64,000 nucleotides of DNA from Octopus vulgaris. Its lineage: Eukaryota. This document shows, one piece after another, positions 2,222 to 61,336 of this stretch. The position numbers and the translations under genes were made by a program. The notes below the pieces were generated by a model. The model did not search any database, was not told where the DNA came from, and saw only the letters and a list, made by a program, of their open reading frames with translations. How positions within the stretch are numbered: the first letter of the stretch is position 1; each line of letters starts with the position of its first letter. The DNA lies in NCBI GenBank assembly GCA_951406725.2, contig OX597821.1:94550001-94614000 (forward strand), in the 5' to 3' direction.

Positions 2222-2430
2222 TAATTTTAATCCAAACGGGAAACAAAAAAACAACAACAATGGAACAATTACAGTATTATTATTAATAGGCGCTCAGGAA
2301 ATGGAAGCAGGGAGGTATGACGTTTCGAGCGGAGCTCTTCGTCGGAAACATAAAGAAGGAAGAGAGAGGAAAGAAAGATCCCGGAGCGGGCAACGGAGAT
2401 AGAGAAAAAAAAAAAAAAAAAAAAAAAATA
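2222..2430 (-). mobile_element. Penelope-like terminal fragment with variant minimal hammerhead, in (TA)n
   Basis: Minus strand reads gttt-CCGACGA-a-gagc-tcc-gctc-GAAAC-GTC-atac (about 2315-2349); (TA)n on both sides. Confidence 0.6.
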
Positions 2431-3027
2431 TATATATATATATATATATATATATATATATATATATATGTATATATATATATATGTGTGTGTATATATC
2501 GTCTTCAAGGTTCTAGCGGTTGAATCACTTAACCTTTGTCTCATTATATCTCGCTGAGTGTCTTGTTTTTTTCTAAAATACATCCCGCCACGCATGCGCG
2601 AACACACGCATACAAGCACACATACATACTTACATACATACGTGTGTATGTATATGTAAATATATACATGTTTAATAGCGTATATATATATATATATATA
2701 TATATATATATATATATATATATATATGCGTATATATATGTGTATGTGTGCTTGTGTGTGTACGCCAGAGTATTCATATAGTAATTATGACTCAGTAACG
2801 TTTGAATACAATAAAAGATTATAGAGGGAAAGACAGACAGTGTGAATAGAACGAAAAAAAAAACAGACACGATATGTTGAAAGTGACATTTTTTCCATTT
2901 CTCTTGAAATTGAAGAGTTAAATAATATTTAATAAGGAAAGGGCGATAGATAGATAGATAGATAGATAGATAGATATATATATATATATATATATATATA
3001 TATATATATATATATATATATATATAT

Positions 3028-3277
3028 AATTCGGGGTGAGTACTTGATAATTATAAGCACCTGTGTATACCGTTTGGTGGTGTAGGTGGTGGAGTAAATT
3101 GATCAAAATAAAATAAAAACATGATGCGAAGGATTCAGCGGTACATATGTTTCGGGCCTTTATTAGACAGATTTATAACATACATTATGCATTGTTATAA
3201 ATCTGTCTAATAAAGGCCCGAAACATATGTACCGCTGAATCCTTCGCATCATGTTTTTATTTTATTTTGATCAATTT
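3028..3277. mobile_element. Fold-back element with 85-bp inverted arms carrying the hammerhead 3' half
   Basis: Arms 3096-3180 and 3193-3277 are reverse complements; each has GAAAC-ATAT-GTA; unique tail 3028-3095; (TA)n flanks. Confidence 0.8.
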
Positions 3278-3301
3278 TATATATATATATATATATATAT
3301 A

Positions 3302-3683
3302 CTAGCAGTATCGCCCGGCGTTGCTCAGGTTTGTAAGGGAAATAACTATAAAGCATTTTTAGAGAGTTATAGCCAAAAAATAGCAAAAAAATGGAAAAAA
3401 ATGATGGTAAATTTTTTTTTTAGTTAAAAAAAGGTGGAGTTGCGTCCCCTAGACAGTTTGCGGTTTGTGTTTCTGATTCTCGACCCCATGTCGAATTTAT
3501 CGATTTTTTTCAGAACTGGGGGAACTTTTCAAAATTTTCGCTGCGTTAGTTTTGAATTATGACATTGGGCTATGTGTGTGTCAAGTTTCATCAGAATCGG
3601 TTGAAAGCCGTGGTCAGGGTGAGGGTACAAGCAAACAGACACACAGAAACACGCACAGACAAACTGCCGTTTATATAGAGAGA
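3302..3683 (-). mobile_element. Non-autonomous Helitron-type element
   Basis: Minus-strand 3' end gagcaacgccgggcgatactgCTAG|t (hairpin plus CTAG); 3' part shared with the 3997 and 53093 copies. Confidence 0.75.
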
Positions 3684-3996
3684 TATATATATATATATAT
3701 ATATAGAGAGAGAGAGATAGATAGAGGTTGAGTGGGAGAGGGAGAGAGAGACGTAAAGAGAACGTGTAAATGCTTGCATTGTTTGTAAATTGAGAAAAAT
3801 ACTTAAAACAGTATTTGATGGACAGTGCATGTGTATATTTGTGTATTTGTGTATTTGTGTGCTTGCGTGTGTATGTAAAAGAGGGGAGAGTCGGAAAGAA
3901 TAATGTGTCAGGCAAAAAACAAAAAGAATATCAAAAACAGTGAGAAAAGAAAATGTGTGGAAGATATATCGAAAGTAAGAATTTTATATATATATA

Positions 3997-4394
3997 CTAG
4001 CAGTATCGCCCGGTGTTGCTCGGGTTTGTAAGGGAAATAACTATATAAGCATCTTTAGAGAGTTATAGCCAAAAAATAGCAAAAAAATGCATTAAAAATG
4101 GAAAAGAAATGATGGTAAATTTTTTTTTTAACTCCTTGACTCATCGTAGACATTTTTAGAGAGTTACTTCCCTTATATAATAGCGAAAAAATGCATTAAA
4201 ATGGGAAAAAATGATGGTAATTTTTTTTTAAATCGTAGACTCATCGTAAACGCGCGCTAATACCCAGAAGGGCTCGATATGAATCACGACTATAAGATAC
4301 CCGCTTTTGGTTACACTGCACCGCAAAATGTGGGAGTAGTTAGGAATTTAAATCGTAGGAGACAGACACACAACTTCTCTTTTATATATAAAGA
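3997..4394 (-). mobile_element. Non-autonomous Helitron-type element
   Basis: On the minus strand a|TCtttatatataaaag ... hairpin, CTAG|t; closely similar to 53093-53387 with an extra internal duplication. Confidence 0.8.
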
Positions 4395-4891
4395 TTATCC
4401 GACCATAGAACGCAGGATGAACGTAGATCCCGAAGAAGTGGACAGACGCTGTGCAACAAGACCCGAGTAATTGAAGCACTATAGAGCAAGTCATATTGCT
4501 AACACAACGGCAGTATAATGCGCTTAATATGTTAAGATCATTGACTCAGGTGATCTAAAGAGACACTTCACGAACTTCAGATGAGAAGACAGCAAAACAG
4601 AGAGAATGAAAGAGAGAAAGAAGAGAGAGACGGGAGAAGATTAGAGACAGCTGTTAATGAAGAAAGAGCCATAGAGCAGCAAATAGGGGGTTAAATGTTA
4701 TTGATGAACTACGAGAAAGAAGAATAGAAGAAATTAGACAAAGAACAGCAGTAAAATGTCTTAATGAGACTCAAGTGCAAATTAATCAAGGAATTGGAAA
4801 TCCAAGACAAAAGCTGCTCCAAGATTAGAAAGTGGAATTAACGAACCAAAAAATGCACGGCGAGTAAATGATTTAATGAGAGCTAATGAAA

Positions 4892-58404: not shown

Positions 58405-58656
58405 GTGGTCATTAATGAGAGACGGAGGCCTCAAAGGAGAAATAGTTGAGCGGTATGATGATAATGATGATGATGATGATGATGATGATGATGATGATTT
58501 CTTATATTTTCCAAAGGAACATCAGATGAGAGGGATGTTACAAAGACGGTTTACAATATGAGTAGATGTTTACGTAAAAGATGAGGGTAAAAAAAAATAC
58601 AATGTAGAAATGAGATAAAAGTATGCTCAGTATACAAAATATATAAACACATCGAT

Positions 58657-59042
58657 GGGAAGCACTCCGTCGGTTACGACGACGAGGGTTCCGGTTGATC
58701 CGAATCAACGGAACAGCCTGCTCGTGAAATTAACGTGTAAGTGGCTGAACACTCCACAGACACGTGTACCCTTAACGTAGTTCTCGGGGATATTCAGCGT
58801 GACACAGAGTGTGACAAGGCCGGCCCTTTGAAATACAGGTACAACAGAAACAGAAAGTAAGAGTGAGAGAAAGTTGTGGTGAAAGAGTACAGCAGGGATC
58901 ACCACCATCCCCTGCCGGAGCCTCGTGGAGCTTTTAGGTGTTTTCGCTCAATAAACACTCACAACCCCTGGTCTGGGAATCGAAACCGCGATCCTATGAC
59001 CGCGAGTCCGCTGCCCTAACAACTGGGCCATTGCGCCTCCAC
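58657..59042 (-). mobile_element. Family A SINE with 12-bp TSD
   Basis: TSD aaacacatcgat at 58645-58656 and 59043-59054. Confidence 0.92.
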
Positions 59043-59099
59043 AAACACATCGATAATGTAGTCCTGACACAAGAGAGCCTCCAACTAGAGCCAGTCAAA

Positions 59100-59850
59100 G
59101 AAACCCACAAAGCCAGAATCATCCTGATCACTAAACGCTCAAACCCTTGTCCAACTCTTGTTCTCCAATCTACAAACGCAAGTTTAGAAGAGGTCCATTC
59201 AACCTAACCATTTTTACCACATTCACCCACCTTTTGACAAATATACTGGGACTGAGCACTTCCTTCTCCATCCTCACTTTTACTTCTTAATAGAACTTAA
59301 AGTGATTATGTTTTAGTCGAAGAGGTGGGGTTTGATCCTCAATTCTTCCAACCTCGTCCACCAGACAACCTCTGTCACCGTAGCCAATAGACAGGAACAA
59401 CACTTGCCCTGCGTTACTGAAGGTGGTAGTGGGATGACGCCCGCGGTGAACTCAGAAGTCAGTTGGATTTGTCCTACACGCGAAACAAACTGTTCTATAT
59501 AACTCCACAAGTCAGTAACGCTCGGATACTGCGCGAGCGCATGCATTACGCCCTGTACGATCCCGGGCAGCCCCACCTAGTGACACTTTTGTGTTTATCT
59601 CGAATCTGCAGTGTCCCATGGTAACAGTGCCTATGGTAGAGCCGGTTAGGAAATCCTCAGAAACAGACCAACTAGTTCGTTTCCCTGAAAACCTCTTCGC
59701 TCTTATCTAAAGCTGAAAATCTCTTCGCTCTTATATAGAGACAAGGACTCTATATGCATAAAGATTTCACCGACTGCATTGCCCGATCAATAGAGAGTTG
59801 GTGCAGACGCTGCGGTCGGTGAAGTTGGTGCGATCGGTGGAACCTCTATG
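59100..59850 (-). mobile_element. L1/Tx1-type non-LTR retrotransposon 3' remnant
   Basis: YHGTLQIRDK and HALAQYPSVTDLWSYIE resemble the C-terminal zinc-binding region (H.L..CP...LW) of L1/Tx1 ORF2. Confidence 0.55.
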
Positions 59851-60332
59851 TTTAAAGTATATAGAGATTTAGTGGTGGGTATCTGCGTGCTAGTGTGCAT
59901 GCATGGATGTACACAAGCACACACACGTATACAGGTTACACTAGATTCACTTCCACCCTATATGTATGCACATGTACATACGCTATACCCAGACTCAAAT
60001 TAAGCGAAATTTGTAAATAACCTACATGTATCGTGCACATATGATACACACATACATGAACGCGTAATGAATATATTTGCACGCGTGTGATTGTATGTGT
60101 ATATGTGTGAGTATGAGTGTGTGTGCATGCGCATGTGTACGTATGAGTGTTTGTGTGTGTGTGTGTGTGTGTGTGTGTGTGTGATCAAAATATCAAAGTT
60201 AACAAGTGCAGCAGCAAACGACACTATGGCCAACACATTTAACTGCTGCACAGCAATAACAACAAGAAGCCGCCGGTTGCAAGAAGCAAGAAAAGTAGAT
60301 TAAAAGCAAGTAATATATAACAGTAATAGAGT

Positions 60333-60759
60333 TGTAAAGTATAGAAGCCATCTTATCATGGCTAACCACATAGGGGAGGGGGTGTTACTGTAGTTTTATA
60401 GCCCCAAGAGATCGTCGTCTCCAGCTGGCTTTAGACACCATTTCAGTGCCCTTGAAGTATTTGCAAAGGGAGGCCATCCCTTCCTCGCAAGCCTGAGTGA
60501 TACGCTCGGACTAGTTTCAGGATTTTTGTCCCTTGTCCGAGCGTATCACTCAGGCTTGCGAGGAAGGGATGGCCTCCCTTTGCAAATACTTCAAGGGCAC
60601 TGAAATGGTGTCTAAAGCCAGCTAGAGACGACGATCTCTTGGGGCTATAAAGCTACAGTAACACCCCCTCCCCTATGTGGTTAGCCATGATAAGATGGCT
60701 TCTATACTTTACATTATCGAGCGATTACTGTTTCAATCTCATTCTGAGATTTAATTATG
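60333..60759. mobile_element. Fold-back element: 179-bp arms, 23-nt loop with hammerhead 3' half, 46-bp tail, 14-bp TSD
   Basis: Arms 60333-60511 and 60535-60713 (2 mismatches seen); agtaatagagttgt at 60322-60335 and 60760-60773. Confidence 0.88.
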
Positions 60760-61336
60760 AGTAATAGAGTTGTTATTGTTAAATGTTGTAGACTGTGACG
60801 AGGAAGAGGATGGCTGTTCGCAGTGGTGGCGAAGAGGATGGCTGTTCGCGGTGGTGGTGGTAAAATTCCCATTCGTTTGACTGTGTAGTTTTTTTTTTCT
60901 TATCAGACAGACATATTTCTATAATAGACACTAAAATTGTTTTACTGACGTGAGTATGAGAAATGAATTTATGAGAGCAGACTTTCAAAAGCTAGCCCCC
61001 ACCCCGAGTAATTTAATATAGAAATAAAACAATAAAGAGAGACCGATATAGAAAGAGAAAAAGAGAAAGAAAGAGATTTCAGGTAGAAAGGAAGAGTGAG
61101 AGGAAGTGACACGTGTTTATATGACAATCAGACCTAAATAAAATCTCGTAAAATGGCTGACCTTGAATTTTATTACAAGAAGCTGGGTGTCTAATGAAGT
61201 CCTTTTTAACTGCTTTCCTAATTGTGTCGAAATTGTGAAATGATATTTAGCTTTCCATTTTGTTGCTGTTTAGTTCTATATCAGCTCCAACCCAACTAAA
61301 CACAACACCAGTAACTTTTTTTGTAGCCATATATAG

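Follow-up and report, generated by a model that had tools for sequence, protein, structure and literature searches.

The hammerhead-like motifs and fold-backs dispersed through this 64,000-nt stretch of Octopus vulgaris DNA (the window) are, with a probability of roughly 85%, the 5′-truncated 3′ ends of twelve multi-copy families, all likely inserted by the proteins of Penelope-like elements (PLEs), one of them (A) retrozyme-like and another (B) with a likely captured RNA polymerase III promoter. A hammerhead motif downstream of Penelope-type genes is an already known arrangement; the unusual part of the system is the tRNA-like segment of family B. The first-pass annotation had taken these loci for many families of non-coding mini-retroelements and could not tell whether they were catalogued. 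The kind has been described (PMC4209133, PMC8557442).

The motif proposed for these loci, GAAAC-(palindrome)-GT-H, has 21 matches on both strands of the window, against 6.5 ± 2.6 (maximum 15) in 200 block-wise dinucleotide shuffles. Eleven are loci named in the first-pass annotation (2326-, 3153-, 3220+, 11802-, 11920+, 12864+, 22149-, 22753-, 27837+, 46965+ and 60518-), five come from one common SINE-like repeat and five lie elsewhere in the window. Two other named sites do not carry the motif, 36495 having a GUG triplet and 23011 a palindrome one base short. A strict hammerhead descriptor placed an upstream core at only one of the 21 matches, and Rfam returned no hammerhead among the best 150 of 294 matches across the whole window. 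By reading the sequence, CUGANGA-type cores are present in the window copies at 6 of 12 loci (2326, 11802, 22353, 22753/23011, 27837 and 46965). Five copies are clipped inside or after the ribozyme (3028, 10576, 12864, 22149 and 60333), and the copy at 36495 has no core, nor does its family (J).

Simple-repeat matches aside, the family regions are mutually unrelated in sequence. Inverted arms were confirmed at all five loci said to fold back, and two further fold-backs, in families F and G, had been overlooked. Family H (2222..2411, minus strand, in (TA)n) is the 5′-truncated 3′ end, or pseudo-LTR (pLTR), of a Neptune-type PLE. Family C (3028..3277), the pLTR end of a Hydra-type PLE, has a tail-bearing arm at 3028-3195 (-) and a tailless inverted arm at 3193-3277 (+), paired over 85 bp (3096-3180/3193-3277); because both arms are cut inside helix II, no core remains. 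The family I fold-back (10576..10724; arms 10576-10603/10611-10638, 28 bp) begins 3′ of the predicted cut and therefore retains no ribozyme. Family D (11693..11992; arms 11739-11857/11865-11983, 119 bp) has the tail and a complete minimal hammerhead on its minus arm (GAAA at 11802) and a mutated core in its plus arm. Family G (12342..12964) consists of a degenerate inverted arm at 12342-12432 (-) and a main arm at 12820-12964 (+) cut inside helix II, and the 3′ end of family G2 (21982..22177, minus strand, in (TA)n) is cut inside its long helix II. Family F (22235..22627), missed as a locus in the first pass, folds back at 22470-22536/22561-22627; its tail-bearing minus arm has a CUGAUGA core (GAAA at 22353), the inverted arm being 22561-22627. 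Family E (22709..23258; arms 22709-22801/22963-23054) is an old fold-back; in each arm a CUGACGA core survives along with a long helix II. Family J (36244..36508, minus strand) is the 3′ end of a PLE-associated repeat and is non-canonical, with a GUG triplet and no upstream core. Family K (46722..47293, plus strand; partial duplicate at 47552-47801) is an old copy with a CUGAUGA core and a long helix II. Family A (60322..60773; arms paired over 179 bp, 60333-60511/60535-60713) has a tailless arm at 60333-60534 (-) and a tail-bearing arm at 60532-60759 (+), with the core cut off.

The family B copy (27589..27866, plus strand) corresponds to the 3′ UTR/pLTR of a Penelope/Poseidon-type PLE and comprises a short UTR, a tRNA-like module with A-box-like and B-box-like motifs (27625..27700, plus strand), (AAT)n and a minimal type I hammerhead (27799..27849, plus strand; predicted cut after 27844). 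That hammerhead has a 5-bp helix I, CUGAUGA with a bulged A, an ACGU palindrome, a GUU triplet and a mutated first pair in helix II; the 33-nt family core has 2166 exact genomic matches, and its reversed control has 0. Against 30 host tRNAs the module scores above shuffles, while ARAGORN found no tRNA in 15 family B sources and Rfam none in L028. Among module-selected copies, 21 of 30 start within -8..+5 of the first base of the module (2.2 expected), and the clustered 5′ ends fall on the base matching tRNA position 1, seven bases ahead of the A-box-like motif. Of 30 loci selected by their ORF, 24 have the module downstream of it. The short copies of family B, roughly 270-300 nt long, begin at this module, which is a fixed part of their own PLE's 3′ UTR. 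The module is likely a captured Pol III promoter for short SINE-like copies, and we infer their transcription by Pol III.

It is possible, at somewhat below even odds, that the short copies are instead ordinary solo-pLTR products whose 5′ end comes from a Pol II start at the pLTR promoter, or from stalling or fold-back of the reverse transcriptase at a hairpin beside the module, the tRNA-like sequence being an old SINE insertion passively carried. A short palindrome does straddle the start site, and family C, without a tRNA head, shows a similar, weaker cluster of 5′ starts (10/25 within 29 nt), so that such a cluster marks a transcript 5′ end and not the polymerase. The majority sequence is identical between short and ORF-bearing B copies, hence there is no separate SINE lineage, and RNA reads of family B (27600) are split about evenly between the strands and show neither a discrete start nor a discrete end. 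However, the cluster sits at the tRNA-position-1 base just ahead of the A-box-like motif and persists without an adjoining inverted arm (L324, L331, L333, L337 and L341), just 4 of 30 copies end within the module, and the module occurs in none of four tandem pLTR pieces directly before the ORF start. The lack from the B unit of any T run of at least four, of the Pol III terminator type, also weighs against a solo-pLTR origin. Our preferred reading, a captured promoter, has partial parallels. SINE-like elements of Schistosoma join a small-RNA-derived module of Pol III promoter type to a hammerhead (PMC6765202, the available part of which names no PLE partner), and Helenus carries tRNA-derived sequence in its terminal repeat (PMC10886601). 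Unlike in either, in B the module is a fixed part of the coding PLE's own 3′ UTR, and the short copies form no lineage of their own and are inserted with the PLE signature of inverted arm and tail; Helenus elements, moreover, are non-autonomous LTR elements.

In longer genomic copies of ten families a type I hammerhead core can be read, its helices covarying from family to family; both CUGANGA and UUGANAA cores occur. Among the family arms and copies scored, the core is present in 28/30 for A, 41/52 for B, 30/36 for C, 20/22 for D, 10/17 for E, 3/10 for G (exact anchor), 12/15 for G2, 15/15 for H, 7/10 for I and 3/6 for K, and in 0/15 arms for J. Taken over the ten families, pairing holds for 26 of 30 pairs in helix I and for 30 of 30 in helix II; exchanging 3′ strands between families lowers these to 12.8 and 17.6, and none of 20000 permutations matched the real values. 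Family A has UUGACAA (28/30 arms), D the U3-A8 core UUGAAAA, and I CUGAAGA with an 8-nt palindrome. Family H combines a variant CCGACGA core (U4-to-C) with a 4-bp helix II, an ACGU palindrome and a weak helix I (GAAA at 2326); the core change and weak helix occur in a plainly young family. Minimal hammerheads known from PLEs (PMC4209133) share the bulged base after position 9, the short helix I, the palindromic helix III and the U3-A8 variant, as well as a large number of unrelated families in each genome, most copies being single and truncated, and opposite-strand pairs 100-700 bp apart. The octopus families C, E, G, G2, I and K differ from them in the 51-86 nt between core halves (86 in G2), often with a mismatched first helix II pair (C, G, I and K), and H differs in its core. 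The available part of PMC4209133 has no Octopus entry.

That the motifs are hammerhead-shaped but do not cleave in vivo, being either a protein-binding or dimerising structure or a pLTR passenger, seems rather unlikely. Such a view would accommodate the non-canonical young families (the H core, the helix II mismatches, the lost core of J), the low in vitro activity and lack of RNA ends at the cut reported in PMC4209133, and the finding that insertion does not require cleavage (PMC11167929). It sits poorly with the joint retention of core, NUH triplet and helix pairing in ten unrelated families, including a compensated C3-G8/U3-A8 pair, and with cleavage by the PAc hammerhead in the presence of its protein (PMC11167929).

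All 12 loci searched belong to multi-copy families, with 92 to 2968 first-look candidates each, and versions adjoining Penelope-type RT and GIY-YIG ORFs were found, both as the first-pass annotation had anticipated. Most copies are short in every family sampled. Five of the twelve families lie downstream of PLE RT/endonuclease sequence elsewhere in the genome. H, C and B are the pLTR ends of coding PLEs of Neptune, Hydra and Penelope/Poseidon type, clades assigned by motifs rather than by a tree. In H, 40 of 40 scored copies are 100% identical, and the window copy matches both pLTRs of genomic loci L158-L160 at 184/184 positions; the parent is a 6.2-kb Neptune-type PLE, with an 884-aa open stretch in L160 containing RT, a C-x4-C-x2-C linker and GIY-YIG. 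Family C has a full pLTR-ORF-UTR-pLTR element (L256/L293), and in B a 569-aa RT-EN frame is linked to the 3′ end downstream of it. Pfam matches for H and B fell short of the curated cut-offs, and the Hydra-type pieces matched neither RT nor GIY-YIG. E (22709) and J (36350) follow endonuclease remnants on the same strand, Hydra-type for E in L296 (three tandem units) and L388, and for J a GIY-YIG fragment ~600 nt upstream in L166/L254 (tblastn). Links are indirect for F, whose arm lies directly against a Neptune-type RT-EN fragment of opposite orientation (L214/L253), and for I, where a related 3′ end continues into a Hydra-type ORF (L297). D, G, G2 and K had no linked ORF in the loci fetched; upstream of D, G2 and J is long low-complexity sequence, 3′-UTR-like and common to copies.

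It is improbable that most loci are self-standing, non-coding, ribozyme-processed families that only borrow PLE protein. Short copies and the ORF-less families D, G, G2 and K would fit, but H, C and B run on into RT-EN ORFs, E and J into endonuclease remnants, and D, G2 and J share their upstream sequence. The mini-element proposal holds for family A, the only family that our sequence comparisons establish as a self-contained non-coding unit. Its 357-nt tandem unit passes from its own 3′ end into a unit start in 26/30 loci, with a longest stop-free stretch of 68 codons. Mapped ends gave no sign of ribozyme processing: the 5′ ends of A do not gather where the cut is predicted, about 3 arms among 27 loci starting within -6..0, and B reads lack discrete ends. 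Metazoan non-LTR retrozymes (PMC7229834; bioRxiv 10.64898/2026.07.22.740005) are likewise non-coding head-to-tail units with a type I hammerhead in genomes with autonomous PLEs, their PLE dependence being argued from co-occurrence and phylogeny in the preprint. Family A differs from them in its minimal U3-A8 core, in reaching at most about 1.7 units, and in the PLE tail and inverted arm at its insertions; the word 'tail' is absent from the available 2026 text.

Head-to-head arms occur at 11/27 loci of A, 34/59 of B, 12/25 of C, 11/20 of D, 12/25 of E, 8/15 of I and 7/15 of G, and at 0/15 each of H and G2 within the distance limit used. Two fixed 3′ ends occur, with a spacing of about 42 nt in A, 30 in B, 75 in C and 85 in I. 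By comparison with published elements, this fold-back and tail layout corresponds to the PLE insertion signature, an inverted copy plus a 30-40-bp tail (PMC8557442), the tail being defined by two RT start sites and hammerhead mutants still inserting (PMC11167929). Perfect hairpins in (TA)n look MITE-like, but MITE-like DNA transposons, assembly artefacts or chance palindromes are a negligible prospect given the excess of motifs over shuffles, head-to-head arms truncated 5′ to varying degrees and fixed at unequal 3′ ends, arms that are also single, tandem or joined to RT ORFs (on which grounds they were ruled out for A, B, C, D, E, G and I), and family B opposite-strand joints recurring in contigs of an independent run.

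Published PLE biochemistry suggests how insertion would proceed. The GIY-YIG endonuclease would cut DNA that is AT-rich or (TA)n, the RT priming at the cuts and beginning at either of two fixed RNA sites downstream of the hammerhead. Copying would usually end early, and copying on both strands would give a head-to-head pair with the tail in one arm only. Cleavage by the pLTR hammerhead is predicted for dimers alone, joined through palindromic helix III, and the ribozyme is likely dispensable for insertion; short RNAs that include the 3′ part of the pLTR are likely to be inserted by these PLE proteins in trans. Neptune, Hydra and Penelope-Poseidon elements (PMC8557442, PMC11167929) share with the octopus families the pLTR-ORF-pLTR layout, an RT with C-terminal GIY-YIG, (TA)n targeting, and an adjacent inverted 5′-truncated copy with a tail at a single end, and the clade marks are as published: a Zn linker in H, DKT and CxCX5C in C, and no linker in B. 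The Octopus rows available in the PMC8557442 supplement, 2 of 4 occurrences, name Naiad families only. Target-site duplications of 12-17 bp flank several A and B loci, among them the A window copy (14 bp; 60322-60335, 60760-60773). The tails of C and I, at about 75-85 nt, are longer than the published 30-40 (PMC8557442).

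Behind the loci of the window stand twelve repeat families, here labelled A to K plus G2, and a search of the 2.80-Gb assembly (227 contigs) found all 12 of the loci searched to be multi-copy. First-look candidates, which are not copy numbers, amounted to 1919 for A, 2968 for B, 1533 for C, 924 for D, 2121 for E, 527 for F, 1146 for G, 1684 for G2, 1267 for H, 542 for I, 2090 for J and 92 for K, and 40 were scored per family. A 33-nt core of B has 2166 exact genomic matches, against 0 for its reversed control. Simple repeats excepted, the twelve families are mutually unlike in sequence. 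The available text of PMC4209133 already describes genomes in which numerous unrelated and mostly truncated families of Penelope-like elements (PLEs) carry minimal hammerheads. The published octopus annotation, in the part open to us, gives PLEs 6.83% of the genome and 190 families (PMC13282606), so that in such a genome we expect one remnant per 5 kb; the words "hammerhead" and "ribozyme" appear nowhere in its supplement. The loci are real and for the most part debris of the kind expected from several PLE clades. What goes beyond the ordinary is family B with its tRNA head and the retrozyme A with its PLE signature. We put at about 0.5 the probability of a joint reading in which B, a Penelope/Poseidon element, took up a tRNA-derived Pol III promoter into its own 3' UTR and A is inserted by PLE proteins.

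Microsatellites and short repeats are abundant in the window. The first-pass annotation had reported a GAAAC-(palindrome)-GT-H motif at a series of loci, and on the two strands this motif occurs 21 times, compared with 6.5 ± 2.6 (maximum 15) in 200 shuffles of the window. Of these matches, eleven fall at the loci it named and five in copies of one common SINE-like repeat, the other five being elsewhere; among the named loci, 36495 departs from the motif with a GUG triplet and 23011 has lost one palindrome base. The very common SINE-like repeat contributes its five matches at 14094, 19628, 55351, 56359 and 62722, where GAAAC-GTT is found without the upstream core, and part of it stands in three tandem 184-bp copies at 41756-42312. 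The five fold-backs (head-to-head arm pairs) named earlier, those of A (60333), C (3028), D (11693), E (22709) and I (10576), are real, and two more lie at 22470-22627 and 12342-12964. Head-to-head arms, unequal fixed 3' ends and joins to RT ORFs led us to reject MITEs or assembly artefacts as their source. The window alone leaves the ribozyme reading unproven, because only 1 of the 21 motif matches passed a strict hammerhead descriptor and hammerheads were absent from the best 150 of 294 Rfam matches in the window.

It is in the family copies that the hammerhead reading held, with cores and covarying helices I and II in ten families. Counted over arms with an exact GAAA-to-cut anchor, the core stands at a fixed upstream distance in 28/30 arms of A, 41/52 of B, 30/36 of C, 20/22 of D, 10/17 of E, 3/10 of G, 12/15 of G2, 15/15 of H, 7/10 of I and 3/6 of K; F has a core in one of two arms. 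A CUGANGA or UUGANAA core with GAAA and an NUH triplet is present in A, B, C, D, E, G, G2, I and K. H has the variant CCGACGA and a weak helix I, and A and D have the compensated U3-A8 core that PMC4209133, in its available part, describes for Schistosoma PLEs. The first three pairs of the helices, summed over ten families, are formed in 26 of 30 cases for helix I and 30 of 30 for helix II. With 3' strands swapped among families the values are 12.8 and 17.6, and the observed pairing was reached in 0 of 20,000 permutations, in a test that allowed one-base offsets and used spacing windows chosen after the families had been viewed. Helix III is a 4-8-nt palindrome that self-pairs only between two molecules, like that of published dimer-acting hammerheads; six of the palindromes pair as self-duplexes (-1.7 to -11.1 kcal/mol) and do not fold into hairpins. 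Between the core halves lie 51-86 nt in C, E, G, G2, I and K, and the first helix II pair is mismatched in several families. The window copies keep the core at 6 of 12 loci, those of C, G, G2, A and I being cut inside or after the ribozyme. Except in J, the family motifs resemble minimal type I hammerheads, for which cleavage is predicted. J shows a core in none of 15 arms and has a GUG triplet, and so falls outside the canonical hammerhead. The family (window copy 36244-36508, minus strand) has GAAAC-GUG and, about 20 nt downstream, CUGAAGA, the half-cores thus standing in reversed order; J is possibly a decayed or permuted hammerhead.

Head-to-head arms were found at 11/27 loci of A, 34/59 of B, 12/25 of C, 11/20 of D, 12/25 of E, 8/15 of I and 7/15 of G, and at 0/15 loci of H and 0/15 of G2. 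There are two classes of 3' ends, spaced by about 42 bases in A, 30 in B, 75 in C and 85 in I. An inverted 5'-truncated copy together with a tail at one end is the PLE signature in the available text of PMC8557442, and it is the same in A, B, C, D, E, G and I; the tails of C and I, however, measure about 75-85 nt compared with 30-40 nt published for PLEs. In vitro work in the available portion of PMC11167929 attributes the PLE tail to a pair of RT start sites. At several A and B loci a target-site duplication of 12-17 bp can be read, and that of the A window copy lies at 60322-60335 and 60760-60773. We infer that PLE proteins would carry out target-primed copying on both strands of a staggered cut. 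At another locus (L301, 900-2900), mirror copies of A and I-like pieces lie within a palindrome about 2 kb long; a target duplication of 12 bp accompanies each A copy.

The families had been proposed to be mobilised by a Penelope-type RT/GIY-YIG protein. Such a partner exists as ORFs for H, C and B and as remnants for E and J, and the loci fetched for D, G, G2 and K gave no coding-element link. An RT followed by a C-terminal GIY-YIG domain is found in H and B, and in C by motifs with one frameshift; Pfam scores of the linked ORFs are below the curated cut-offs, or absent. The H window copy (2222) equals, at 184/184 bases, both pseudo-LTRs (pLTRs) of three 6.2-kb elements elsewhere in the genome (L158-L160), in which the pLTRs are direct, contain the hammerhead, are 357-937 bp long and stand 6.2 kb apart. 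One of these elements encodes RT, a C-x4-C-x2-C linker and GIY-YIG in an open stretch of 884 residues and would fit the Neptune clade, clades here being set by motifs defined in PMC8557442 and not by a tree. H must be very young, since 40/40 scored copies are 100% identical. The elements have a 2.8-kb 3' UTR (approximately 4375-7160), largely of imperfect (CA)-rich repeats, and H may therefore seed microsatellites. In C the order (loci L256 and L293) is pLTR, ORF with its one frameshift, long UTR, tailless pLTR and (TA)n, and the ORF has the Hydra-defining motifs DKT and CxCX5C. Ahead of B lies an RT-endonuclease frame of 569 residues that has DKG, lacks a linker and appears to fit Penelope/Poseidon; the pLTR piece of B stands directly before the ORF in 4/30 loci and after it in 21/30. 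Against PDB, the B protein had weak RT matches only (best E 0.014).

Looser associations were seen in other families. Upstream of E, on the same strand, lie Hydra-type endonuclease remnants; at one locus (L296, G000:C2:193996500-194006400) such a remnant and an E hammerhead occur together in each of three tandem units, spaced about 2.85 kb apart. J lies downstream of a GIY-YIG fragment. Indirect links were seen for F, one arm of which adjoins an inverted Neptune-type fragment, and for I, where an I-like 3' end runs into a Hydra-type ORF. A link of G2 to a Hydra ORF (L297) was rejected because it is an I-like 3' end that precedes the ORF there. Extending 19 long loci of D, G, G2, K, J, F, E and I further upstream gave same-strand ORF pieces only for E (L388 and L389); one weak, distant ORF match in a D extension (L377) was left out of this count. 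Hammerhead mutants still insert, and RNA-seq reads ending at the cut were not found, according to the available portion of PMC11167929. The young H and the hammerheads with a long helix II are ready substrates for the question of what role the hammerhead has in PLEs.

The first-pass annotation described the families as non-coding mini-elements. This does not apply generally, H, C and B being coding and E and J associated with remnants; A is the one family that matches the picture. Its unit is 357 nt and closed: its own 3' end precedes the unit start in 26/30 loci, shared outside sequence never does, and the longest stop-free stretch is 68 codons. A thus has a retrozyme layout, in which a type I hammerhead sits in a non-coding head-to-tail unit of 170-400 nt. 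Non-LTR retrozymes, as the available text of PMC7229834 presents them, are alike in size and layout, but A differs in its minimal core, PLE tail and inverted arm. Mobilisation of retrozymes by PLEs was proposed in the same text and is argued from co-occurrence and phylogeny in the accessible part of bioRxiv 10.64898/2026.07.22.740005. Within the joint reading, the tail and inverted arm of A would be direct structural evidence of PLE proteins inserting animal retrozymes, adding support from insertion structure to what had been proposed. Three A loci have Hydra ORF pieces next to them, which are neighbours or insertion targets and lie outside the unit. The results on A speak against ribozyme processing, also claimed earlier. 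Genomic 5' ends were rejected as a record of in vivo cleavage because they do not gather at the cut: they are near it in the window copy, L002 and one piece of L310, and range from -135 to +173 in the other arms (27 loci), in a sample picked with a query extending 29 nt upstream of the cut.

In B (window locus 27600), a module of 76 nt carrying A-box-like and B-box-like motifs lies between the ORF and the hammerhead, with (AAT)n next, and is present in 24 of 30 loci selected by the endonuclease alone. Aligned to 30 host tRNAs, it gives local scores of 49-63 versus about 35 for shuffled sequence, at most 1 of 300 shuffles reaching the observed values. A host-tRNA profile gave E values of 5e-5 (L028), 7e-5 (L231) and 0.82 (B window copy); as positive control, nine tRNA-headed SINE-like repeats of other families in the window (4905, 7846, 16477, 19847, 26365, 30295, 42400, 46044 and 59029) gave 1e-7 to 2e-5. 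ARAGORN called a tRNA in 0/15 sources, and Rfam found neither tRNA nor hammerhead in L028 1380-1780. An exact pattern inside the module has 323 genomic matches. Among the first 30 of these, two being arms of one locus, 21 copies start at -8 to +5 of the module's first base, two at -14 and -18, four inside and three further upstream. Smooth truncation would place 2.2 of 26 copies at risk there (P about 1e-18, or 1e-9 at three times the rate). A run of four T is absent from the B unit; the module is in 0/4 of the tandem pLTR pieces directly before the ORF start.

We considered whether the short copies are a separate SINE lineage sharing only its 3' end with B, but short (about 25) and ORF-bearing (24) copies have the same majority sequence over head and hammerhead, one variable position aside. 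At their 5' ends the short copies have a tRNA-derived head containing A-box-like and B-box-like motifs; they work like a SINE, although we do not file them as one. The module is likely a Pol III promoter, and we rate actual use of Pol III by B at even odds or slightly better. Three observations weigh against it. The starts of C cluster too (10/25 within 29 bases) without a tRNA head, so a start cluster marks a transcript start or stall and not the polymerase. A small palindrome spans the B start site. Finally, B reads in three raw RNA-seq runs of a related organism (7036-10127) come from both strands with no bias and no discrete ends, and none end at the predicted cut; the RNA-seq is therefore uninformative on Pol III or cleavage. 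Under the Pol III reading, the promoter in the module would yield short RNAs that the element's own protein inserts. The joint reading would then make the short head-hammerhead-tail RNA, inserted by B's own RT-endonuclease, a SINE born inside its mobiliser and outnumbering it, a tRNA-headed passenger of PLE and not LINE machinery. Among the systems nearest to B are the Pol III-plus-hammerhead elements of Schistosoma (PMC6765202, available part) and the LTR elements Helenus (PMC10886601, available part). Our literature search brought up no paper that reports a PLE pLTR with a tRNA head. If its use of Pol III is confirmed, B offers a way for a SINE-like element to originate within a PLE, in parallel to Helenus.

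Long degenerate stretches among (AAT)n at 28760-31700 and 54860-55760, which by eye resemble ORF fragments of a non-LTR retrotransposon, were unmatched by the PLE queries. At 37179-38180 the window also holds a mixed (AAT)/(GAT) array of 1 kb with 334 units.
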